Shown here: piece after piece, positions 5,578 through 18,678 of the stretch
Numbering within the stretch: position 1 is the stretch's first letter
Layout: each line of letters starts with the position of its first letter
NCBI GenBank assembly: GCA_052390515.1
Contig: JBQTGV010000075.1
Location: 1 to 19,016 of the forward strand
DNA: 19,016 nucleotides
DNA from: Candidatus Eiseniibacteriota bacterium
GTDB lineage: Bacteria; ARS69
Reading direction: 5' to 3'
Notes under the pieces: model-generated
Told to the model about the DNA's origin: nothing
What the model saw: the letters and a program-made list of their open reading frames with translations, nothing else
Database searches by the model: none
Program-made: the position numbers and the translations under genes

Positions 5578-5640
5578 GTTGGAGCAGCTCGGTCACGTGG
5601 AGCCGCTGCGCGGCCCGGGTTGCTCTCTCGGAGGGTATCC

Positions 5641-6666
5641 ATGGTACGAGTCAGACGGACCAGAGTGCTGGGCGTAGCATTACTTGCCGTGGCTTCACCC
5701 GCACTGGGGCTCACCTGGAACGTCAATCCAGCGGGAACGGGTGATGCTCCGACGATCCAGGCGGCTTTCGATCTCGCCGCTCCAGGTGATCAGATCGTCC
5801 TCGCGCCCGGAACCTACGTCGACAGCCACACGAGGACGGTTCAGGGTCATTCGACACAGCAAACGACCGCGTCGACGGCTTTCATGAGTGCCGGAGTGAA
5901 CATCGTCAGCTCGAGCGGGGCGGAGGTGACGTTCATCGACGGTCAGGACGTTCGCCACGGCCTTCTCGGGACGGACCTGGGAAGCGTGACCATCAGCGGG
6001 ATCACGTTCAAGAACTGCGCGGGCAACGCCGGGGAGGGCTGGGGTGGGGGAATCATGCTCCATCGATCGGACCCCACCGTCGATCACTGCGTGTTCGTGG
6101 ATAGCTACGGATGGGCAGCTGGCGGTGTCTTCGTGTCGCAGGGCGCGAACGCGATCATCCGTTACAATAAGTTCATCCGCAACTCAGGAGGGGATCTCGC
6201 TGGTGCGCTGGAACTCTTCCAACATGGTGGCGTCGCCTACATCAGCAGCAACACGTTCGTCCACAATACGACGACCCGCTACGGCGGCGCGGTCATGATC
6301 AACGCATCGACGGCACAATTGTCGAACAACATCTATGCGTGGAACTCCGCCGATCTGAGTGGAGGTGCGGTGGCGTGCCTGAACTGGGCGACGGTGAGCG
6401 GCTCCTGCGATCTCTACTGGCAGAACACGGCGTCCACGGACCCGGATGTCTACGCTTGCTCGATCACGATCGGGCAGTTCGGCAACCTGTCGGCGGATCC
6501 GCTGTTCTGCGACGCACCTGGCGGAGCCTATACGATCCGCTCCGACTCGCCGGCGGCTCCTGATGCGGTCGGCAGCTGCGGGCTGCGTGGGGCGTGCCCG
6601 GTCGCGTGCGGGCCAGTTTCGATCACCGCCAGCTCGTGGGGGAGGATCAAGGCCCACTACCGGTGA
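5641..6666 (+). CDS. Secreted right-handed parallel beta-helix (pectin-lyase-like fold) protein with C-terminal SWGxIKxxYR tail, paralog 1 (341 aa)
   Basis: ATG 5641 follows GGAGG at 5630-5634. Sec-type signal peptide MVRVRRTRVLGVALLAVASPALG. N-cap TIQAAFDLAAPGDQIVLAPGTY; GGG/FxxN repeats (WGGGI, FIRNSGG, NTFVHN..GGAV, NNIYAWN..GGAV); ends ADPLFC...CGPVSITASSWGRIKAHYR*. Confidence 0.85.
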   Translation: MVRVRRTRVLGVALLAVASPALGLTWNVNPAGTGDAPTIQAAFDLAAPGDQIVLAPGTYVDSHTRTVQGHSTQQTTASTAFMSAGVNIVSSSGAEVTFIDGQDVRHGLLGTDLGSVTISGITFKNCAGNAGEGWGGGIMLHRSDPTVDHCVFVDSYGWAAGGVFVSQGANAIIRYNKFIRNSGGDLAGALELFQHGGVAYISSNTFVHNTTTRYGGAVMINASTAQLSNNIYAWNSADLSGGAVACLNWATVSGSCDLYWQNTASTDPDVYACSITIGQFGNLSADPLFCDAPGGAYTIRSDSPAAPDAVGSCGLRGACPVACGPVSITASSWGRIKAHYR

Positions 6667-6715
6667 CGGCAACCAACGCCACCCCGGGCGCCAGTCGGCG
6701 GCTCCAGAAACGGTG

Positions 6716-6749
6716 GGTGGGCGGGCACGACGAACCGTGCCCGCTCGCC
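6716..6749. terminator. GC-rich hairpin between the convergent paralogs; probable bidirectional terminator or 3'-end stabiliser
   Basis: GCGGGCACG (6721-6729) pairs perfectly with CGTGCCCGC (6736-6744) and extends to 14 bp with G-U pairs on the + strand; 6-nt loop. No clear U-tract on either side. Confidence 0.5.
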
Positions 6750-6757
6750 TCGATCGC

Positions 6758-7795
6758 CTAACGATATGCCCCCTTGATGGAACCCCAGGATCTTACGGCG
6801 ACGGGAACTGGTCCGCATCCGACACCGTTCGCGCGGAGAAGCCCGCAGCCGCTCGGATGTCCGGGTTCGGCCGGTGAGCCGGCCTGGATGGCGTAGAAGT
6901 CCGTCGACGGGTTGCAGAACTGGGGGTCGGCCGAGAGATTACCGTGCACGCCGATCGCGACGCCACAGGCGGAGATCTCCGGACCCGAGTTGCTCCAGAA
7001 CAGGTTGCACTGGCTGGTGACGGTGTGGGAGTTGAGGCAGCCCAATGCGCCACCCGTACCGGCAGTGTTCGATGCGAAGATGTTGTTGTTGAGGACGATG
7101 ACCGTGTTGTTGATCATCATCGCGCCGCCGCTGCGCACGGCATAGTTGTCGACGAACGTGTTGTTCGTGACCGAGGCGGACGCGGTCTCGAAAACCTCCA
7201 GCCCTCCCCCCAGGTCTCCCGCCGACCCACGCAGGCAGAGATTGCGAGTCACGATCGCGTTAGGCGCTCCCTGGATCAATGCGCCGCCACCACCGCCTCC
7301 CTTCGTGGCAACGCAGTCCACGAACCGATTGTCCTGGATCACGACACTGGAGCGGTAGGTGAGGACTCCACCGCCCCAGATCTCCGTGCCTCCACCGTTG
7401 CCGTTCGTTCTCCCGTTGATGAAGGAAATCCCGCTGATCTCGACGTTGCCAAGGTCGGCGCCGACGAGCCCGTGTCGCAGTCCTTCACCGTCGACAAACG
7501 TCAGTCCGGCTCCGCCGACGCTTGAAATGCTGACACCACTGCTCATGTGGGCGACAGCCGAAGTCGTGTTCGGAGCGGGGTTATAGGCCTGGATCAGTCG
7601 TGTGTTGTTGTCTTGGTAGGTGCCGGGCGCCAAGACGATACGATCGCCAGGCGAGGCCAGATCGTAGGCTTCTTGAATCGTCGCAGCGTCACCCGTTCCG
7701 GCCGGATTCACGTTCCAATCGACCGAGACAGCGGCGTGCGGCCAGAGTGTCACCACCGCGGTAGCAGCGAGCACCGTGTGTAGTCTGGAATGCAC
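6758..7795 (-). CDS. Secreted right-handed parallel beta-helix protein with C-terminal SWGxIKxxYR tail, paralog 2 (345 aa)
   Basis: GTG at 7795 follows AAGGAGG (7807-7801, 5-nt spacer). Signal peptide MHSRLHTVLAATAVVTLWPHAAVS; mature N-terminus WNVNPAGTGDAATIQEAYDLASPGDRIVLAPGTY nearly matches paralog 1; ends ADPQFC...CGPVPVAVRSWGSIKGAYR*. The ORF-track extension to 8812 is spurious. Confidence 0.85.
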   Translation of the reverse strand: MHSRLHTVLAATAVVTLWPHAAVSVDWNVNPAGTGDAATIQEAYDLASPGDRIVLAPGTYQDNNTRLIQAYNPAPNTTSAVAHMSSGVSISSVGGAGLTFVDGEGLRHGLVGADLGNVEISGISFINGRTNGNGGGTEIWGGGVLTYRSSVVIQDNRFVDCVATKGGGGGGALIQGAPNAIVTRNLCLRGSAGDLGGGLEVFETASASVTNNTFVDNYAVRSGGAMMINNTVIVLNNNIFASNTAGTGGALGCLNSHTVTSQCNLFWSNSGPEISACGVAIGVHGNLSADPQFCNPSTDFYAIQAGSPAEPGHPSGCGLLRANGVGCGPVPVAVRSWGSIKGAYR

Positions 7796-7964
7796 GGGGA
7801 CCTCCTTGTTGGAGGGCATGGTATTGTCCGCAACCTGTGGCGGATCGCCTTCCGAATCTACCGACAGCGAGCGGTCGAGAAAATGGGGGGGAACAACCCC
7901 CAGGATGCCAAGCCGGACCGACTGGGCGCAACGTGAAAGGCCGAGTTCGACGCCGGCCCCCACC

Positions 7965-7993
7965 TTGACGCCCCACGAGGGGGTCTCTAGATT
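7965..7993 (+). promoter_or_regulatory. sigma70-type promoter of the rib operon
   Basis: TTGACG (7965-7970), exactly 17 nt, TAGATT (7988-7993). The predicted start site (~8000) lies just upstream of the riboswitch. Confidence 0.75.
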
Positions 7994-8008
7994 CCGCCGA
8001 CGCCGTAA

Positions 8009-8138
8009 GCTCCTCGGGGCGGGGTGAAACTCCCCACCGGTGGTGACAGCCCACGAACGGGTCGGCGCTTCAGGGCGCCGACTTCGCCGACGCGGTGGAA
8101 CTCCGCGGCCGACCGTAAAGTCGGGATGGGAGAGGAGC
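8009..8138 (+). ncRNA. FMN riboswitch (RFN element)
   Basis: Conserved blocks CTCGGGGCGGGGTGAAACTCCCCACCGGTGGT..AGCCCACGA, CCGACGCGGTGGAACTCCGCGGCCGACCGTAAAGTCGGGATGGGAGAG; P1 GCTCCTC/GAGGAGC; variable stem GTCGGCGC-TTCAGG-GCGCCGAC; located directly upstream of ribD. Confidence 0.96.
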
Positions 8139-8221
8139 ATCGACGCCAGCGGGCGGCCGCCTCGGGTGGGCGCCCCGTTCGGCGTCCGCGCCCGCCCCGA
8201 GACCCGTGCCCCGGGGCTGCC

Positions 8222-9379
8222 ATGATGACCCAGTCGCCCGCCGAAACGAGGGACCTGCGCGGCTCCTCGCCCGACGACGAGGGCTGGATGGCCCGCGCAC
8301 TCGAGCTGGGCCGCGCCGGCCGCGGGCGAACGGCGCCGAACCCGATCGTGGGGGCCGTCGTGGTCCAGGGGGGCCGCGTCGTGGGCGAAGGCCACCACGA
8401 GCGCGCCGGGGCTCCGCACGCCGAGGCCGTGGCGCTGGCGCGGGCGGGGGACGCGGCCCGGGGCGCGACGCTCTACGTGACACTCGAGCCCTGCTCGCAC
8501 CAGGGGCGAACACCCCCGTGCGCACCGGCGGTCGTCGCGGCGGGAGTGAGCCGCGTCGTCTCCGCGCTGGAGGATCCGGATCCGCGGGTCCGCGGTGCGG
8601 GGCACCGCCTGCTCCGTGAGGCGGGCGTTCGAGTGGACGTGGGCGCGGGCGAAGCGGCGGCGCGGCAGGACAACGCCGAGTACCTGCACCGCGTGACCAC
8701 CGGGCGGTGCTTCGGCGTGCTCAAGGCCGCGGTGACCCTCGACGGCCGGCTCGGGGCGGACGGCGGCGACTCCCGCTGGATCACCGGACCCGAGGCCAGG
8801 CTTCGCGCTCACGAGCTCCGCGACGCCTACGACGCCGTGCTGGTCGGCCGGGGCACGCTGGCGCGGGACGACCCCCGGCTCGACGTGCGCCTTTCCCCGG
8901 CCGGCCGCAGCCCGGTGGCCGTCGTGGTGGATTCGCGCCTCGCGGCTCCTCTTGAACGCCAGCTCTGGAATCGCGCGAAGGAAGGATCACAAGTGATTGT
9001 GGCCGCTGTGGATGGAGTGGGCGAAGAGCGGGTCGCCCGACTGGAGCGGCTGGGCGTCGAAGTCGCTCGGACGGGTCCGGACGCCGCCGGCCGGGTCTCG
9101 CTCCCGGAGCTCTTCCGGCTCCTCGCCGACCGCGGGCTCAACTCGGTGATGGTCGAAGGGGGCGAGACCGTGCACACCGCAGCGCTCGCGGGAGGGCTCG
9201 TCCAGCGGGTCCACGTGTTCGTGGCGCCGCTGCTCCTGGGAGGCGCCGGCGGCCCGAGGCTGGTCGGCGATCTGGGGATTCGCCGGGTATCCGACGCGCT
9301 TCGCCTGGCGGACGTAGAAGTCGAGCGGCTCGGCGCGGACCTGCTGGTCTCCGGACGCGTCGAGAGCGGGGCATCGTGA
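8222..9379 (+). CDS. ribD: Bifunctional diaminohydroxyphosphoribosylaminopyrimidine deaminase / 5-amino-6-(5-phosphoribosylamino)uracil reductase (385 aa)
   Basis: TAPNPIVGAVVV, PHAE, LYVTLEPCSHQGRTPPC (Zn deaminase); KAAVTLDG, SRWITG, VGRGT..DDP.L, VMVEGG (reductase). Start ATG 8222 or 8225. Confidence 0.96.
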   Translation: MMTQSPAETRDLRGSSPDDEGWMARALELGRAGRGRTAPNPIVGAVVVQGGRVVGEGHHERAGAPHAEAVALARAGDAARGATLYVTLEPCSHQGRTPPCAPAVVAAGVSRVVSALEDPDPRVRGAGHRLLREAGVRVDVGAGEAAARQDNAEYLHRVTTGRCFGVLKAAVTLDGRLGADGGDSRWITGPEARLRAHELRDAYDAVLVGRGTLARDDPRLDVRLSPAGRSPVAVVVDSRLAAPLERQLWNRAKEGSQVIVAAVDGVGEERVARLERLGVEVARTGPDAAGRVSLPELFRLLADRGLNSVMVEGGETVHTAALAGGLVQRVHVFVAPLLLGGAGGPRLVGDLGIRRVSDALRLADVEVERLGADLLVSGRVESGAS

Positions 9380-9984
9380 TGTTCACCGGGATCGTGCGGG
9401 AGATGGGAGTCGTCCGCGAGCTTCGCCCCGAAGGCGGCCTCGTCCGGGTCCGCATCGAAGCGCCGAAGGCCTGCGCGGCGCTGCGCACCGGCGCTTCGAT
9501 CGCCGTCGACGGAATCTGCCTGACGGCGACCGAGGTCGGACAGGGTGCCTTCGCCGCGGACGTCGTCCCGGAGACGCTTTCGCGCACGCGCCTCGGCGAC
9601 GTGCGCACGGGCGACCGTGTCAACCTCGAGCTCCCCGTGCGCGCGGGGGACCCCCTGGACGGCCACGTCGTGCAGGGTCACGTCGACGGGACGGGGGTCG
9701 TCGCCGAGGTGAGCGTCGAGCCCGGACAGAACGTGGTCACCGTCCGCGTGGGGCAGGAGCTCGCTCCGTATCTCGCCGAGAAGGGCTCCGTGGCCGTGAA
9801 CGGCGTGAGCCTCACCGTCACCGGGGTCACGCGGGAGACGTTCTTGTTCGCGCTGATCCCCACGACGCTCCGGGAAACGAACCTCTCCGAGCTCACCGAG
9901 GGCTCGCGGGTCAACGTCGAGGTGGAGATTCTCGCCCGCTACGCCGCGCGGCGGGAGGAGCCGGCGAAGTGGCGAGCCCCGTGA
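9379..9984 (+). CDS. ribE: Riboflavin synthase (alpha chain; ribC in E. coli nomenclature)
   Basis: Invariant N-terminus MFTGIV, GASIAVDGICLT, VNLE, GHVVQGHVD, KGSVAVNGVSLTV, LIPTT..TNL, VNVEVE; TGATG coupling to ribD. Confidence 0.96.
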   Translation: MFTGIVREMGVVRELRPEGGLVRVRIEAPKACAALRTGASIAVDGICLTATEVGQGAFAADVVPETLSRTRLGDVRTGDRVNLELPVRAGDPLDGHVVQGHVDGTGVVAEVSVEPGQNVVTVRVGQELAPYLAEKGSVAVNGVSLTVTGVTRETFLFALIPTTLRETNLSELTEGSRVNVEVEILARYAARREEPAKWRAP

Positions 9985-11234
9985 CGCAGGCCGCGACGGT
10001 GAACGCGCCGCGACGCGACTCGATCTTCGATCCGGTAGAGAAGGCCGTCGCCGACGTGGCCGCCGGGCGCCTGGTCATCGTGGTCGACGACGAAGACCGG
10101 GAGAACGAGGGCGATCTGGTCATGGCCGCGGAGAAGGCCAACGCCGACGCGGTGAACTTCATCACCCGCTGGGGGCGCGGCATCCTGTGCGCGCCGCTGT
10201 CGCCCGAGATCGCCGACCGGCTCGAGCTGAAGATGATGACGCCGCGGAACAATGCACTCATGGGCACGCCGTTCACCGTGTCGGTGGACGCCGTCGCCGG
10301 GACGACGACCGGAGTGAGCGCGTCGGACCGGGCCGTCACGCTCCGCAAGCTCGCCGATGCGGACGCCGTTCCCGCGGACTTCGCCGTGCCGGGACACGTC
10401 TTCCCGCTGCGGGCCATGGACGGCGGCGTGCTTCGCCGCACCGGCCACACCGAGGCGGCGGTGGACCTCGCCCGCCTCGCCGGGCTCCGCGAGGTCGGCG
10501 TGCTGTGCGAGATCCTCAACGAGGACGGCACGATGGCACGGCTCCCGGACCTGGTCCGGTTCCGCGAGCACCACCGGCTCACCATGATCTCCATCGCCGA
10601 CCTGATCCGCTGGCGCCGGCGCGCGGAGGTGCTCGTCGAGCGGCTGGTGGAGACGAAGCTGCCCACGGAGTTCGGACTGTGGACCATGGTGCTGTACTCC
10701 TCGCGGATGGAGGAGGACCTGCACGTCGCGCTGGTCAAGGGGGAGCTCGCGGACCTGGGTCGGTCCGAGCCGCTGGTCAGGGTCCACTCGCAGTGCCTCA
10801 CCGGTGACGTCTTCGGTTCCCGGCGCTGCGACTGCGGCGACCAGCTCGCGCGGGCGATGGAAGAGATCGACGCGGCCGGCCTCGGTGTGCTCCTCTATAT
10901 GCGCCAGGAGGGGCGAGGCATCGGCCTGGTGAACAAGCTCCGGGCCTACAACCTGCAGGATCGCGGCGCGGACACCGTTTCGGCGAACGAGATGCTGGGG
11001 TTCCGCGCGGACGAGCGCGACTACGGCATCGGCGCGCAGATCCTCTTCGATCTCGGAGTGCGACGCATGCGCTTGCTCACCAACAACCCGACGAAGCGGA
11101 TCGGACTGGAGAGCTACGGGATCACCATCCTGGAGCGCGTTCCCATCAGCGTTCCGCCGAAGCCCGAGAACGTCGGCTACCTCCGGGCGAAGCGGGACAA
11201 GCTCGGGCACCTCCTGCCCGACTTCCCGGAGTGA
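9969..11234 (+). CDS. ribBA: Bifunctional 3,4-dihydroxy-2-butanone-4-phosphate synthase / GTP cyclohydrolase II (421 aa)
   Basis: DDEDRENEGDL, TGVSASDRA, PGHVFPL, GHTEAAVDL, CEI (RibB); RVHSQCLTGDVFGSRRCDCG, QEGRGIGL, LLTNNP (RibA). GGAGGAG at 9954-9960 precedes GTG 9969. Confidence 0.97.
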   Translation: MASPVTQAATVNAPRRDSIFDPVEKAVADVAAGRLVIVVDDEDRENEGDLVMAAEKANADAVNFITRWGRGILCAPLSPEIADRLELKMMTPRNNALMGTPFTVSVDAVAGTTTGVSASDRAVTLRKLADADAVPADFAVPGHVFPLRAMDGGVLRRTGHTEAAVDLARLAGLREVGVLCEILNEDGTMARLPDLVRFREHHRLTMISIADLIRWRRRAEVLVERLVETKLPTEFGLWTMVLYSSRMEEDLHVALVKGELADLGRSEPLVRVHSQCLTGDVFGSRRCDCGDQLARAMEEIDAAGLGVLLYMRQEGRGIGLVNKLRAYNLQDRGADTVSANEMLGFRADERDYGIGAQILFDLGVRRMRLLTNNPTKRIGLESYGITILERVPISVPPKPENVGYLRAKRDKLGHLLPDFPE

Positions 11235-11237
11235 TCC

Positions 11238-11711
11238 ATGGGGCGGACGTTCGAGGGGACTCCTGCCGGGGAGGGGCGGCGCTTCGCGCTCGTCGTCGGC
11301 CGCTTCAACGAGTTCGTCACCGAGAAGCTCCGTGCGGCTGCCGTCGACTGCCTGCTGAAGCACGGCACGCGGTCGGAATCCGTGGACGAGATCTGGGTTC
11401 CCGGCGCCTTCGAGATCCCGCTCGCGGCCAGGGTCGCGGCGAGCTCCGGGAAGTATGACGCGGTGATCTGCCTGGGCGCGGTGATCCGCGGCGCGACGCC
11501 CCACTTCGACTTCGTGGCGCGGGAGAGCGCGCGCGGCATCGGCCGCGTCTCGCTCGAGACCGGCGTGCCGGCGATCTTCGGAGTGCTGACTACCGACACC
11601 GCCCAGCAGGCGGTGGAGCGCGCCGGCGGTCTGGCCGGCAACAAGGGGTGGGACTCGGCGCTCGCCGCGCTCACCATGGCGAGTCTCCTCGAATCGATGC
11701 GGAGGCCGTGA
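11238..11711 (+). CDS. ribH: 6,7-dimethyl-8-ribityllumazine synthase
   Basis: GRFNEFVT, WVPGAFEIP, ICLGAVIRGATPHFDFV, FGVLTTD..QQAVERAG...NKG. Confidence 0.97.
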   Translation: MGRTFEGTPAGEGRRFALVVGRFNEFVTEKLRAAAVDCLLKHGTRSESVDEIWVPGAFEIPLAARVAASSGKYDAVICLGAVIRGATPHFDFVARESARGIGRVSLETGVPAIFGVLTTDTAQQAVERAGGLAGNKGWDSALAALTMASLLESMRRP

Positions 11712-11712
11712 C

Positions 11713-12126
11713 GTGGGACGGCGTAGGCTCGGCCGCGAGACCGCATTCAAGGCGCTCTACCGCATCGATCTCACCGGCCGCGGGATCGAGGAAGCGATCG
11801 CCGGGCTCGTCGAGGAGGGTCCGTCGGACCCCGAGGCGTTGGCGTTCGCGCGGGAGCTCCTGGAGACCGTCGGCGCGGGAAGGACGCGCGTGGACCAGGC
11901 GCTGGAGGGGGCGGCCGAGAACTGGTCGCTGGAGCGCATGGCGGTCGTCGATCGCTCGATCCTTCGCCTCGGCGCCGCCGAGATCCTGTTCTGGCCCTGG
12001 ATTCCCGACGAGGTCTCCATCGACGAGTACGTCGAGATCGCACGCAAGTTCGGCGGCGAGCACTCCGGGGGATTCGTGAACGCAGTCCTGGACCGCATCT
12101 CGCGGGAAACGAAGGAGGCCTCGTGA
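11713..12126 (+). CDS. nusB: Transcription antitermination factor NusB
   Basis: N-terminal Arg-rich RRRLGRE.AFKALY, NWSLERMAVVDRSILRLG, VSIDEYVEIARKFG, FVNAVLD; canonical ribH-nusB order; GGAGG at 11701-11705. Confidence 0.95.
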   Translation: MGRRRLGRETAFKALYRIDLTGRGIEEAIAGLVEEGPSDPEALAFARELLETVGAGRTRVDQALEGAAENWSLERMAVVDRSILRLGAAEILFWPWIPDEVSIDEYVEIARKFGGEHSGGFVNAVLDRISRETKEAS

Positions 12127-14943: not shown

Positions 14944-15893
14944 TCGTCGGCGGGACCGGGTTCGTGGGGCGGCATCTCGTCTCCGCGTGCCGCCAGGCGG
15001 GCGACGACGTGTTCGCCACGGGCCGGCCCGGGGAGCGTGTGCCCGACGAGCCGGCCGGCGTTCGATGGATGGAGCTGGACCTGCTCGACGGGGAATCCCT
15101 CCGCGGCTCGCTGGACACCGCGCGGCCGGACGGGATCGTGCACCTCGCCGGACAGGCCAACGTGGCCGAGGCCAACCGCGACCCCATCGCCGCGTTCCGC
15201 GTGAACGCGGAGGGCACCTGGCGCATGCTGGACGCGGCGCGCACGCGCGCGCCGCAGGCCCGCGTCGTGGTGGTCACCTCGGCCGAGGCCTACGGCGCGG
15301 TCGATCCTTCGGAGATGCCGATCCCGGAGACCCGCGAGCTCGCCCCGCGCACGCCGTATGGTGTTTCCAAGGCCGCGGCCGATCTCGCGGCCGCGCAGGC
15401 CCACGCCGGCTGGGGTCTGCACGTCGTGCGCATGCGTCCCTTCAACCACGTCGGGCCCGGACAGCGGCGAGGCTTCGTGGTTCCGGACTTCGCGAGCCAG
15501 GTCGCGGCGATCGAGCGCGGCGAGTGCGAGGCGATGGTCCGGGTCGGGAACCTGGCCGCGCGCCGGGATTTCACCGACGTGCGCGACGTGGTTCGCGGGT
15601 ACCGCCTCGCGCTGGAACGAGGTCGCGCCGGGCGCGCCTATAACCTGTGCTCCGGGACCTCCACGCCGATCGAGGCGGTGCTGGCTTTCCTCGTCGCGCG
15701 TTCGGTCGTGCCGATCCGTGTCGTGCTCGACGAGACGCGGCTGCGGCCGTCCGACGTGCCCGACTTCCGCGGCGATCCGTCGCGCGCCCGCGATGAGCTG
15801 GGCTGGGTTCCTCGCATTCCGCTGGAGGCATCCCTCGGGGACGTGCTGGAGGAGTGGCGAAGCCAGGGCGCGGCGGCCCGGCCCGTCGATTGA
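14931..15893 (+). CDS. rmd: GDP-4-keto-6-deoxy-D-mannose reductase-like extended SDR (GDP-D-rhamnose forming, putative; 320 aa)
   Basis: GTG 14931 overlaps the end of gmd. [54 protein letters not shown] are typical of Rmd; it lacks the Fcl/WcaG SSCIYP motif. Confidence 0.75.
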
Positions 15894-15918
15894 CGGAGGC
15901 GCCGCAAGAACTTACAGT
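15890..15918 (+). promoter_or_regulatory. sigma70-type promoter for the DUF2723 gene
   Basis: TTGACG (15890-15895, overlapping the rmd stop), exactly 17 nt, TACAGT (15913-15918). Same -35 hexamer as the rib promoter. Confidence 0.6.
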
Positions 15919-15963
15919 TCACCGTTCCCCGGGCTGCCGGCGGAACGCCTCCCTCGGGGAACC

Positions 15964-18678
15964 ATGACGAGTCTCCCGGACAGCCTCAGCACCAGCTCCG
16001 AGGCGCGGCCGGCCGGCGCCCCCCGGGTCGCCGCCGCCGCCGCCGCCCGTTCCTACGACTTGGCGAACCGCATCGTGGCGGGGGCGGTCGGGCTCTCCAT
16101 CTTCTCGGTCTACGTGATCACCCTCTCGCCCGACGTCTCGTTCTGGGACTCCGGCGAGTTCATCGCCACGTCGCACGCGATGGGGATTCCGCACCCGCCG
16201 GGCACGCCGCTCTACGTGCTCATGGGCCGCGTCTTCTCCCTGCTCTTCCACGGGCTACTGGGGGTGGCGTCTCCCGCGCAGGCCGTGAATCTTCTGAGCG
16301 CGCTGCCCAGCGCCATCGCCGCCGTGTTCCTCTACCTGTGCGTCGTGCGGGTCGGAAAGCGCCTGTGGAACGACGGCGTGCAGTCGACCTTCTGTCTCCC
16401 CGCCACGATCGCCGGCGCGACCGCGGCGATCTTCGCCGCGTTCTCCAACACCCTGTGGATCGACTCCATCGAGGCCGAGGTGTACGCGGTCAGCGGCATG
16501 TGGGCGGTCTTCACCACCTGGCTGGTCCTGCTCTGGGCGGACTCGGAGCCGAGGGACGAGCGCCTGCTGGTGGTGACCGCCTACCTGCTGTCGCTGAACA
16601 TCGGTGTGCACTTGGCGACCTACCTGGCCGCGCTGGCCATCCTGCCCTTCGCCTTCCTCCACGAGCGGCGCATCGCCATCCCGGTGAGCTTCGCCGTCGT
16701 GCTGGCAATGGCGAAGGACCTGCAGTTCTTCCTGGTCGTGGTCGGTCTGCTCATCCTGACCACGCTACAGCTCGCGCTGCTACCCGCTGCGTACCGGGAG
16801 CGCTACCGCTGGACGCTGATGCTGGCACACGGTGTCGCCGTGCTCCTCGCGGTGTGGGCGGTCACGTCGATGACGCCCTCGGCGCTGCGCAACCTGTTCA
16901 TCGCCGTGCCGCCGCTGGTCGCCTTCTTCCTGCCGGTGATCGCCCTGCCGGTGCCGAAGAAGCTGGAGAATCCGTTCACCGACCTGGGGTTCCTGCTCGG
17001 TCTGGTGACCGTGCTCGGATTCACCTGCCACCTCTACCTGCCCATCCGCTCCGCGCTGGATCCCGCGATCAACGAGGCGCAGCCGGACAACTGGGACGCG
17101 TTCTGGAAGCTCATTCTCCGCGACCAGTACAAGCCCACCAGCGTCCTCGACCGGCAAGCCACGTGGGTGTACCAGTTCGACCACATGTTCTGGCGCTACC
17201 TGCGCGAACAGTGGAGCCCGGCGTTCCTGGCGCTGCTGGCCGTGCCCGGAGTACTGGTGCACCTGCGCCGCGATCGCCGCACGTTCGTGCTCTTCGGACT
17301 GCTCTTCCTGTGGACCTCGGCGGCGCTCGTCTTCAAGATGAACTTCACCGATCAGGAAGTCCGCGAGCGCGATTACTTCTTCGCGCCGGGCTTCTTCTAC
17401 TTCGCCGTGTGGATGGGCCTGGGACTCGGCTGGCTCTCGAGTCTGGTGATGAGCGGCGTCTCGGCGCCGCTGCGTCGCGGGGCGGGGCTCGTCACCGCGG
17501 GCGTGTGCGTCTTCATCGCCGGCGTGCCGATGGCCCGCGGCTGGGAGTCGCACGACCGGCGCGGCAACTGGATCGCGAACGACTACGCCTACAACATGCT
17601 CGCGGGCCTGGAGCAAGACGCCGTCCTGTTCACCAACGGCGACAACGACACGTTCCCGCTGTGGTACTTGCAGGAGGTGGAGGGGTTCCGCAAGGACGTG
17701 CGCATCGTGAACCTCTCCCTGCTGAACACGCCGTGGTACGGCGAGCAGATCCGGGACCAGGAGCCGCGCGTACCCATGAGCCTGACCACCGAACAGCTCT
17801 GGGAGCTCACTCCGTTCCGGGACTCCAACACCGGCAAGGTCTGGTACGTGAAGGACATCGTGGGCACGGACATCGTCCAGACCATCCGGCGCCAGGGCAA
17901 CCAGAGGCCGCTGTACTTCGCGGTGACCGTGGACGACCTGCTCGGCTTCGACGACGAGATGCACCTCGAGGGGCTCGTCTTCCGGGTCGCGCCGTCCCGG
18001 GGAGCGACGGCGCTCTCGACCGATGACCCCGAGCTCGGCACGGCCGGAGCGGAGATCGCCGGCGACGTGAACCTGAGCGCGACACGCCGGAACCTGGAGG
18101 AGGTCTACCGCTACCGGGGTCTCCTGGACGAGAGCGGCAAGCTGGATCCCACCGTGTACCGGGACGAGAACGAGCAGAAGCTGGTCACGAACTACGCCGC
18201 GGCGTGGGCGCGGATGGCCATCGCCTACCGTGATCGCGGGGACATGGACCAGGCGCTCGCCTGCATCCGCCGCGCGATCGACATCGCGCCGCACTACGAT
18301 CCGATCGTGGGCGGGCTCGGCGGCATGCTGCTGGAGTCCGGGCAGCTGGAAGAGGCGCAGGCGTTCTACCGCGAACGGCTCCGGACGCACCCCGAGGACG
18401 TCCGGGTGTATCTCGGGCTCGCGCTCGCGGCCGGGAAGACCGAGAAGTGGGAGGAGGCGCTCGAGTGGTACCTCGAGGGACTGCGTCTCGCTCCGGAGTC
18501 GCGGGAGCTGCTGGCCGGGCTGTTCGAGACCTGCCGGCGGCTCGGCCGCTGGACCGAGGCCGAGAACGTGCTGGTACAGTGGCTCAACATGCACCCCGGC
18601 GACCACTCCGCGCGCGCGTTCCTCGAGGACATCCGCCGGCAGCGCCAGGCCGCGGAGTCGAGTCGGGCGGCGAACTGA
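15964..18678 (+). CDS. DUF2723 / TMEM260-like GT-C glycosyltransferase (putative protein O-glycosyltransferase) with C-terminal TPRs (904 aa)
   Basis: SFWDSGEFIATSHAMGIPHPPGTPLY, EAEVYA, GVHL, YLPIRS..PAIN, ERDYFF, LFTNGDNDTFPLWYLQEVEGFRKDVRIVNLSLLNTPWY; many TM helices; TPR-like tail (GDMDQALACIRRAIDIAP, GQLEEAQAFY, WEEALEWYLEGLRLAP). Confidence 0.9.
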   Translation: MTSLPDSLSTSSEARPAGAPRVAAAAAARSYDLANRIVAGAVGLSIFSVYVITLSPDVSFWDSGEFIATSHAMGIPHPPGTPLYVLMGRVFSLLFHGLLGVASPAQAVNLLSALPSAIAAVFLYLCVVRVGKRLWNDGVQSTFCLPATIAGATAAIFAAFSNTLWIDSIEAEVYAVSGMWAVFTTWLVLLWADSEPRDERLLVVTAYLLSLNIGVHLATYLAALAILPFAFLHERRIAIPVSFAVVLAMAKDLQFFLVVVGLLILTTLQLALLPAAYRERYRWTLMLAHGVAVLLAVWAVTSMTPSALRNLFIAVPPLVAFFLPVIALPVPKKLENPFTDLGFLLGLVTVLGFTCHLYLPIRSALDPAINEAQPDNWDAFWKLILRDQYKPTSVLDRQATWVYQFDHMFWRYLREQWSPAFLALLAVPGVLVHLRRDRRTFVLFGLLFLWTSAALVFKMNFTDQEVRERDYFFAPGFFYFAVWMGLGLGWLSSLVMSGVSAPLRRGAGLVTAGVCVFIAGVPMARGWESHDRRGNWIANDYAYNMLAGLEQDAVLFTNGDNDTFPLWYLQEVEGFRKDVRIVNLSLLNTPWYGEQIRDQEPRVPMSLTTEQLWELTPFRDSNTGKVWYVKDIVGTDIVQTIRRQGNQRPLYFAVTVDDLLGFDDEMHLEGLVFRVAPSRGATALSTDDPELGTAGAEIAGDVNLSATRRNLEEVYRYRGLLDESGKLDPTVYRDENEQKLVTNYAAAWARMAIAYRDRGDMDQALACIRRAIDIAPHYDPIVGGLGGMLLESGQLEEAQAFYRERLRTHPEDVRVYLGLALAAGKTEKWEEALEWYLEGLRLAPESRELLAGLFETCRRLGRWTEAENVLVQWLNMHPGDHSARAFLEDIRRQRQAAESSRAAN

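Follow-up and report, generated by a model that had tools for sequence, protein, structure and literature searches.

Two exported beta-helix proteins encoded in a 19,016-nucleotide stretch of Candidatus Eiseniibacteriota DNA (the window, which is contig C75 of a host genome of 4.27 Mb, 223 contigs and 70% GC, labelled G000) end in copies of a modular C-terminal tag of ∼18 residues, with the consensus (C)-x-P-[VT]-[SPA]-[VT]-[ER]-x-x-[ST]-W-G-x-[IV]-K-[AS]-[LM]-[YF]-[RQKE]-stop. As translated, tag copy 1, CGPVSITASSWGRIKAHYR, occupies 6607..6663 on the plus strand, followed by a stop codon at 6664-6666, and tag copy 2, CGPVPVAVRSWGSIKGAYR, occupies 6761..6817 on the minus strand, with its stop codon at 6758-6760; an earlier note on this DNA, which proposed the shared tail as a candidate sorting signal, had read both correctly, stops included, at 6607-6666 (+) and 6817-6758 (-). 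The role of the tag is very probably that of a sorting or docking signal.

Occurrence, passengers and anatomy of the tag

The core pattern WG.[ILVM]K..[YFW] matches 52 times among the 33,620 six-frame open reading frames of at least 60 residues in the host genome, and 47 of these matches lie no more than three residues from the stop codon; four of the other five lie 4-10 residues from the stop, and one falls in an Arg-rich, probably non-genic frame. Five scrambled versions of the motif gave 0, 0, 0, 1 and 0 C-terminal matches. A looser tag pattern recovers 54 host frames, and a profile built from the tails of other genomes yields 58 matches of at least 10 bits among the C-terminal 40-residue segments of the host genome, with no match in the internal parts of 20,783 host frames. 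In the proteome scan that the earlier note had proposed, the motif is accordingly terminal in 54-58 host frames and internal in none. All four glycine codons are used for the Gly of the tag (13, 18, 10 and 13 times), and selection therefore acts on the protein rather than on the DNA.

Tagged proteins are predominantly exported. A simple heuristic predicts signal peptides on both window proteins, supporting the Sec signal peptides read there by the earlier note, and on 44 of the 54 tagged frames (counted by reading the scan rows), several of the 10 misses being truncated frames or signal-peptide-like starts lacking a basic residue. When 3,512 genes are called by a crude procedure, the tagged set has 41 predicted signal peptides in 49 genes and the remainder 1,200 in 3,463 (Fisher 3e-12), the background rate being inflated because the heuristic is lenient; signal-peptide enrichment, one of the checks suggested by the earlier note, is thus present. 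Another of them, diversity of passengers, is equally evident: Pfam assigns 19 of the 54 tagged proteins to beta-helix types and seven to six other families, namely DUF3344, plastocyanin-type cupredoxin, CBM96, CHRD, NHL propeller and PD40 propeller (two proteins), with 28 lacking a match at E ≤ 0.001, so that at least seven unrelated passenger types bear the tag in the host genome. NCBIfam adds DNRLRE and a ScyF-like NHL family, the latter carrying PEP-CTERM elsewhere.

The relation between tag and passenger is that of an appendage to a domain, since in CHRD homologues that lack the tag the sequence stops immediately behind the domain and the tag is therefore not an element of the fold. Among 75 homologues of the first window protein, 49 carry the strict motif and ∼17 more carry variants (A or S for G, or extra residues), while four bear in place of the tag an ending like the C-terminal domain (CTD) of type IX secretion system (T9SS) cargo, two of them with PF18962 on record. 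Ordinary homology, by which the tail would be a beta-helix capping element inherited by both paralogues, draws on the 46% identity of the two window proteins and on the large share of beta-helix types among tagged proteins, but is left with a vanishingly small probability: the tag is also found on cupredoxin, CHRD, NHL, PD40, DUF3344 and CBM96/DNRLRE proteins and on the 28 without a Pfam match, there is no conservation beyond position -19, both predicted structures described below show the tag as a helix of low confidence behind a coil linker, and the tag is exchanged for a T9SS CTD in homologues. Paralogy as the null explanation, which the earlier note could not separate from a sorting signal, is rejected on the unrelated passengers, the end of conservation at -19 and the untagged CHRD homologues; confinement to one family, internal or cytoplasmic occurrence and incorporation into the fold, which that note had listed as observations that would speak against a signal, were not found.

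The anatomy of the tag was derived from 126 distinct tails from other genomes, aligned from their stop codons; W, G, I/V, K, Y and R were prescribed there by the pattern used to find them, but the same profile emerges from the 54 host tails, whose selection fixed fewer positions. Information before position -19 is at background level in the 126 tails. The upstream half comprises, in some tails, C at -20 to -18, then P at -17, V/T at -16, P/A/S at -15, V/T at -14 and E/R at -13, and is followed by two loose positions, T/S at -10 (117/126), W, G, a variable residue and I/V; the tag ends in K at -5, a small residue (A/S/G/T/N) at -4 (115/126), L/M, Y and R. A Cys is located within -32 to -12 in 41 of the 54 tagged host proteins. 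One residue usually follows the motif; in the host tails the aromatic residue is followed by R in 32/54, Q in 5 and K in 2, and otherwise by up to 8 residues, and the final residue is free to be R, Q, K or E. Selectivity at the Lys position is pronounced, with 183 matches to the Lys pattern in five genomes (27 in the host, 48 in G011, 45 in G176, 34 in G164 and 29 in G045) and two matches to the corresponding Arg pattern in the same genomes. This pattern of conservation, with W, G, K and Y near-invariant, a small residue at -4 and Lys not replaced by Arg, suggests at the level of sequence a specific reader. No transmembrane segment is present in the 54 tails, in whose last 40 residues the longest uncharged, amide-free run is 18 residues (median 10); with this median run and 0-8 residues after the motif, the absence of a transmembrane helix stated in the earlier note is upheld.

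Structure prediction places a short helix, beginning with the Trp and borne on a flexible linker, at the end of the tag in two unrelated passenger folds, in agreement with the terminal helix proposed by the earlier note. In the AlphaFold2 model of the first window protein (mean predicted local distance difference test score, pLDDT, 92.9), the beta-helix reaches ∼98, residues 331-339 form coil and residues 340-346 a helix with pLDDT ∼80, and the signal peptide is modelled with low pLDDT as a helix at 13-23. The model of a tagged cupredoxin comprises a domain with pLDDT ∼95, coil at 122-133 and a tail helix at 134-145 with pLDDT ∼70, starting from T134-W135; in both models the tail helix is less confident than the passenger domain. 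The cupredoxin family (contig C8 17112-17564, and homologues P0078-P0106) carries a longer tag form, STWGxIKxxFxxxLP[RK]x-stop, for which the model gives a helix of 12 residues behind a linker of equal length; if the tag serves as an anchor, a periplasmic electron carrier held in place by it would make sense. The net charge of the tag is +2.1 against +0.4 for other C-termini. On a helical wheel, the residues form T/I/Y, W/K/R and G/small stripes with a single variable stripe; a helix constrained in this way on nearly all sides would fit a peptide enclosed by a partner better than a helix lying on a membrane.

The phyletic spread of the tag was surveyed with a degenerate DNA pattern for W-G-x-[IVM]-K-x-x-Y-R-stop, with the reversed pattern as control. 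All 12 genomes of the host's own phylum (one family) contain matches, 17-48 each, and 29 outgroup genomes contain none; the reversed pattern gave no match in the own phylum, the outgroups or a second phylum-level group. A contig scan returned at least 132 matching loci, 130 of which end in a stop codon, from contigs titled Eisenbacteria (many), Krumholzibacteriota/-iia, Latescibacteria, Zixiibacteriota, Effluviviaceae and uncultured Fibrobacteraceae, and the sequence upstream of the tag is unrelated among these loci. In the second phylum-level group, which holds the Fibrobacteraceae-, Latescibacteria- and Krumholzibacteriia-titled loci, exact matches occur in 165/181 genomes, up to 45 each, and a looser pattern applied to five of the 16 match-free genomes found two or three Phe variants in all five. 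The statement of the earlier note that similar endings occur on secreted proteins of FCB candidate phyla is verified by these results. In a sample of the Zixibacteria phylum, seven of 81 genomes have a match, one each; six of them (G228, G244, G255, G271, G293 and G303) carry a single gene ending in WGKIKALFR-stop, perhaps the same protein by orthology, in which the tag was retained or gained, and the seventh (G042) has a different tail.

Relation to described C-terminal signals

The tag is not a member of any described sorting-signal family. No NCBIfam model falls on the tail (0/105 tails, 0/52 tagged proteins), no Pfam model matches the tag in the 54 tagged proteins, and a search of the PDB with the tail profile gave no hits at E ≤ 10. 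A literature search, with subscription journals and supplements outside its coverage, returned no paper describing the tag, and a search by terms of a preprint by Haft on small C-terminal signals (10.1101/2023.06.07.544157) found no mention of such a signal, a result that applies to the passages reached by those terms and has no bearing on the rest of the preprint.

Tripartite signals, read by dedicated enzymes (LPXTG/sortase, PEP-CTERM/exosortase, GlyGly-CTERM/rhombosortase and MYXO-CTERM/myxosortase), resemble the tag in being short, strictly C-terminal, lineage-restricted and attached to many unrelated cargoes per genome; a Cys is often located upstream, as in the 41 tagged host proteins noted above, and the NHL/ScyF-like passenger family uses PEP-CTERM elsewhere. 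In contrast, the tag has neither a transmembrane helix nor a basic tail after the motif, and no sorting enzyme is known for it, the sortase, exosortase and rhombosortase families not having been searched for. Lacking a transmembrane segment, it would therefore be unable to reach the membrane-embedded active sites of sortases, exosortases or rhombosortases. The statement of the earlier note that the tail is not LPXTG, PEP-CTERM, GlyGly-CTERM or MYXO-CTERM is confirmed by the absence of a transmembrane helix with basic cluster and of any NCBIfam sorting-signal match. The beta-signal of outer-membrane proteins was also considered and rejected, as the tag ends in R, Q, K, E or another polar residue and its passengers are soluble folds; one tagged frame ends in Phe, after a non-consensus tail, and host PorV does end in Phe.

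C-terminal amphipathic helices serve as membrane anchors in PBP5 and PBP6 of Escherichia coli, MinD and FtsA, and PBP5/6 illustrate that periplasmic enzymes can be tethered by a C-terminal helix. A predicted short basic terminal helix behind a flexible linker would liken the tag to these anchors, which need no dedicated machinery; such anchors are however family-specific and conserve physical character alone, whereas in the tag W, G, K and Y are near-invariant and Arg is almost never accepted for Lys. How a protein can read a docking peptide is illustrated by the secretin S-domain and its pilotin (MxiD-MxiM, PulD-PulS), in which a C-terminal peptide of ∼18 residues, unstructured alone, becomes a helix in the cavity of its partner and is carried to the outer membrane. 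Each pilot has one cargo, in contrast to the dozens of cargoes that would share one proposed reader of the tag, and in 82 neighbourhoods from four genomes the tag genes had no pilotin-like gene near them.

The T9SS consistently accompanies the tag. The host genome encodes SprA, PorV (contig C108 3431-4357) adjoining a PorU-like gene with a terminal CTD, and another barrel of the PorV type (contig C17 3666-4487); SprA_N is found in 5/5 own-phylum genomes. PorV-family barrels number exactly two in 12/12 own-phylum genomes (loci L242-L254), the orthologue at 75-80% identity and the paralogue at 31-37%. With a CTD profile built from the host genome, a C-terminal CTD was assigned to 163 host proteins; the tag is carried by 49 called genes, and no protein bears both; the median length of CTD proteins is 629 aa and that of tagged proteins 263 aa. 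All 15 tag-bearing genomes tested contain T9SS CTD cargo. SprA_N was detected in 142/181 genomes of the second group, and five tag-rich genomes without a SprA hit carry 23-60 CTD hits, for which reason the missing SprA hits probably reflect model sensitivity.

Type A CTDs (Por_Secre_tail, PF18962/TIGR04183; FlgD_ig-like, PF13860) and the tag are alike in standing at the very end of Sec-exported proteins whose folds are unrelated, in occurring in the same genomes and in the same slot of homologous proteins, and in an ending where a basic residue precedes, by a few positions, a hydrophobic stretch with a terminal Arg. They differ in that the CTD is a folded Ig-like domain of ∼75-80 residues and the tag, of ∼18 residues, is predicted as a linker with a short helix of 7-12 residues, and in that the tag is almost absent from T9SS-rich Zixibacteria. 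Neither PF18962 nor PF13860 matches any of the 54 tagged proteins at E ≤ 0.001, which, with a conserved stretch of ∼18 residues, sustains the distinction from a T9SS CTD drawn in the earlier note. Passages of Lauber et al. 2024 (PMC10994853) describe translocon contacts with a CTD surface that is poorly conserved, except for a Lys close to the C-terminus, important for function and hardly ever varied, that in type A CTDs touches PorV and whose main role is unexplained there, and give ∼1,850 square angstroms as the area of folded CTD buried by the translocon, which a 10-residue helix cannot offer. The host CTDs end in [K/R]-V-V-L-L-R with the basic residue at -6 (K in 87 and R in 46 of 163). 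The tag ending K-small-hydrophobic-Y-R recalls both the CTD Lys and this host ending, a lead from sequence comparison in which register and invariance differ.

Gene neighbourhoods and the window

Neighbourhoods of four genes on each side of 49 host tag genes comprise 284 neighbours, among which the recurrent types are 21 T9SS-CTD proteins and a CBM96-like partner belonging to one cassette (all 8 paralogues); sulfatase with TPR, ABC ATPase, GT4, TPR, response-regulator and OmpA-like neighbours are at or near background. The cassette, of three genes, is repeated at least 8 times in the host genome (contigs C5 13354-19309; C35 25439-31985; C58 50469-55725; C126 8054-13528; C143 9266-15269; C177 476-5760; C189 8251-11806; C207 16337-22013). 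Its first gene, for a beta-helix protein that measures 1,100-1,500 aa and ends in a FlgD_ig/Por_Secre_tail CTD, directly precedes the tagged gene, which encodes a beta-helix protein of ∼440 aa; the third encodes an exported, untagged CBM96/DNRLRE-like protein of ∼190 aa, and some gene pairs overlap or nearly abut. The cassette may encode a surface polysaccharide-processing complex combining both C-terminal signals. Owing mainly to this cassette, and so to one passenger family, CTD genes are mildly enriched beside tag genes (23/163 vs 261/3,300; odds ratio 1.9, p 0.008). One LemA-family gene is located no more than ∼9 kb from a tag gene in each of four genomes (L206, L223, L231 and contig C35), a borderline recurrence that, by a rough estimate, could be chance if there are two copies per genome.

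Two candidate partners of the tag are not supported. A large TMEM260-like GT-C protein with C-terminal TPR repeats is encoded in the window at 15358-18675 (+), surrounded by GT4 genes, a GDP-mannose 4,6-dehydratase and a hexapeptide transferase; its family is present in 172/181 second-group genomes whatever the number of tags, also matches Bacteroides thetaiotaomicron, and as a near-universal family does not track the tag. Attachment by a YkuD L,D-transpeptidase in the manner of Lpp is at odds with the position of the tag Lys at -5, which is not terminal, and with the occurrence of YkuD in 101/181 second-group genomes: the closed genome G043, rich in tags, has none, nor has most of a tag-rich block (G193-G211, G195 excepted), yet YkuD is present in the tag-poor genomes G139-G145.

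The two window genes are convergent and encode beta-helix paralogues, with 165 of 358 aligned positions identical. Gene 1 (5620..6666, +) encodes a right-handed beta-helix protein of 348 aa from a TTG at 5620, with an ATG seven codons in, and begins with a predicted Sec signal peptide at approximately 5620..5709, identified heuristically, in which a basic n-region is followed by a hydrophobic core and LTWNV is preceded by small residues. Gene 2 (6758..7819, -) encodes 353 aa from an ATG at 7819, the most likely start, with a signal peptide predicted by the heuristic scan at approximately 7724..7819. Pfam assigns gene 1 to Beta_helix (E 1.9e-8) and also DUF5123, and gene 2 to DUF5123 (E 4.4e-5); Foldseek matches of the gene 1 model are weak and fall on polysaccharide lyases and epimerases, for example PL6 alginate lyase 7dmk (E 1e-4). 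The minus-strand frame of gene 2 is open from 6758 to 8812 (684 codons, ∼330 of them upstream of 7819), and this extension, which overlaps ribD on the opposite strand, is a spurious long frame typical of a 70% GC genome. A GC-rich inverted repeat with a 7-bp stem (GGGCACG/CGTGCCC, with flanking pairs, identified by eye) is located at 6712-6745 between the convergent stop codons; a terminator scan between the two genes detected none, missing this repeat because no T-run follows it. An ordinary riboflavin operon (ribD, riboflavin synthase, ribBA and lumazine synthase) followed by nusB occupies 8024-12126 (+).

Proposed function and competing explanations

The explanation favoured here, to which about an even chance of being right as a whole is given, is that of a docking or sorting peptide acting after Sec export. 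In this proposal, a Pro-rich extended linker, often after a Cys, and a short basic helix starting from [ST]-W-G and containing a near-invariant Lys would be attached to Sec-exported proteins of many unrelated folds, and after export would be read by a protein partner in the cell envelope that fixes the final place of the mostly small tagged proteins, in parallel with the larger T9SS CTD used by other proteins of the same genomes. On the narrower question of whether a protein rather than lipid reads the tag, the probabilities are again nearly level. Several observations count against the proposal. No conserved neighbour points to a reader in the 82 neighbourhoods, drawn from G000, G043, G045 and G041 and spanning three or four phyla, where LemA and generic families alone recur, and profiling within the second group lacks true negatives, because all five match-free genomes tested carry Phe variants. 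The helical hydrophobic moment is moderate, at 0.43 against 0.29 for other C-termini, 23% of which reach 0.43, and the strand moment of the tag is raised as much as the helical moment. The distance to the stop varies, with 0-8 extra residues after the motif, the variant of the cupredoxin family is longer, and rare K-to-R variants exist, 97 of the best 120 CHRD homologues being tagged and two having Arg for Lys. The T9SS is not sufficient for the tag, as 74 of the 81 Zixibacteria genomes lack it and all five of the tag-free genomes tested there carry 21-56 CTD hits; the resemblance to the CTD end is also loose, the -6 Lys of host CTDs not being invariant and the tag Lys lying at -5.

A self-sufficient membrane anchor, with the basic amphipathic helix lying in a membrane leaflet or on lipopolysaccharide and tethering periplasmic proteins without a receptor, is the most serious competitor, though clearly the less probable. 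It would account for the extreme C-terminal position behind a flexible linker, the predicted helix, the raised net charge and above-background helical moment, the longer amphipathic variant of the cupredoxins, typical periplasmic passengers (cupredoxin, TolB-like PD40 and NosD-like beta-helix) and the lack of a reader gene among the neighbourhoods examined. It sits poorly, however, with the preference for Lys over Arg (183 vs 2), residues usually interchangeable at membrane interfaces, with near-invariant W, G and Y and a small residue at -4 across more than 100 unrelated passengers in several phyla, with a moment that nearly a quarter of other C-termini attain, and with a sharply lineage-specific distribution, although all two-membrane bacteria offer such leaflets. 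The invariant Lys could alternatively be a covalent acceptor, by analogy with Braun's lipoprotein, which is linked to peptidoglycan, or with the pilin-motif Lys of Gram-positive pili, an amine acceptor; it would be joined to peptidoglycan or would resolve a PorU-like acyl-enzyme, linking T9SS cargo to tagged proteins. The cassettes that place a large CTD beta-helix protein directly before a tagged one, the mild enrichment of CTD genes beside tag genes and the PorU-like CTD-bearing gene adjoining PorV are in keeping with such chemistry, which is nevertheless improbable: the YkuD version is unsupported by the distribution of that family, residues follow the Lys before the stop, no route is known by which tagged proteins would reach surface-located PorU, and the enrichment stems mainly from one cassette family.

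Slightly less probable again is recognition of the tag by a periplasmic enzyme, either through glycosylation of the Ser/Thr before Trp by a GT-C enzyme with TPR repeats or as a handle for a C-terminal protease or quality control. The Ser/Thr at -10 in 117/126 tails, the TMEM260-like protein at 15358-18675 and a PMT_2 protein with TPR repeats beside a four-gene tag array on contig C28 would be consistent with glycosylation, but the TMEM260-like family is near-universal and indifferent to tag number, and the GT-C/TPR relatives of the C28 protein stand beside tag genes in 2/11 paralogues, no more than expected from a background of 8%. A degron carried by ∼1.5% of the proteome and retained in different phyla would make little sense, and the variable distance to the end argues against readers that clamp the terminal carboxylate.

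A reader that belongs to or sits beside the T9SS, such as the PorV carrier, is a minority possibility. In a more specific and rather improbable form of this idea, small exported proteins would enter the T9SS or the PorU/PorV attachment step by means of the tag, a minimal linear signal in place of the 80-residue CTD, its Lys acting in the same step as the CTD Lys, possibly as a reactive amine; the T9SS would then gain a second, peptide-sized class of signal, and the role of the CTD Lys a handle.

About 1.5% of host proteins are tagged, and several phyla that have hardly been studied have tens of tagged proteins in each genome. As an address label, the tag would define a new sorting or docking step in the envelope of two-membrane bacteria, would provide a one-line rule of location for hundreds of metagenome proteins of unknown function, and would offer an 18-residue tag for protein targeting. 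The invariant Lys, the strict co-occurrence with T9SS cargo and the near-absence from T9SS-rich Zixibacteria make the question of the reader testable, both comparatively and biochemically.

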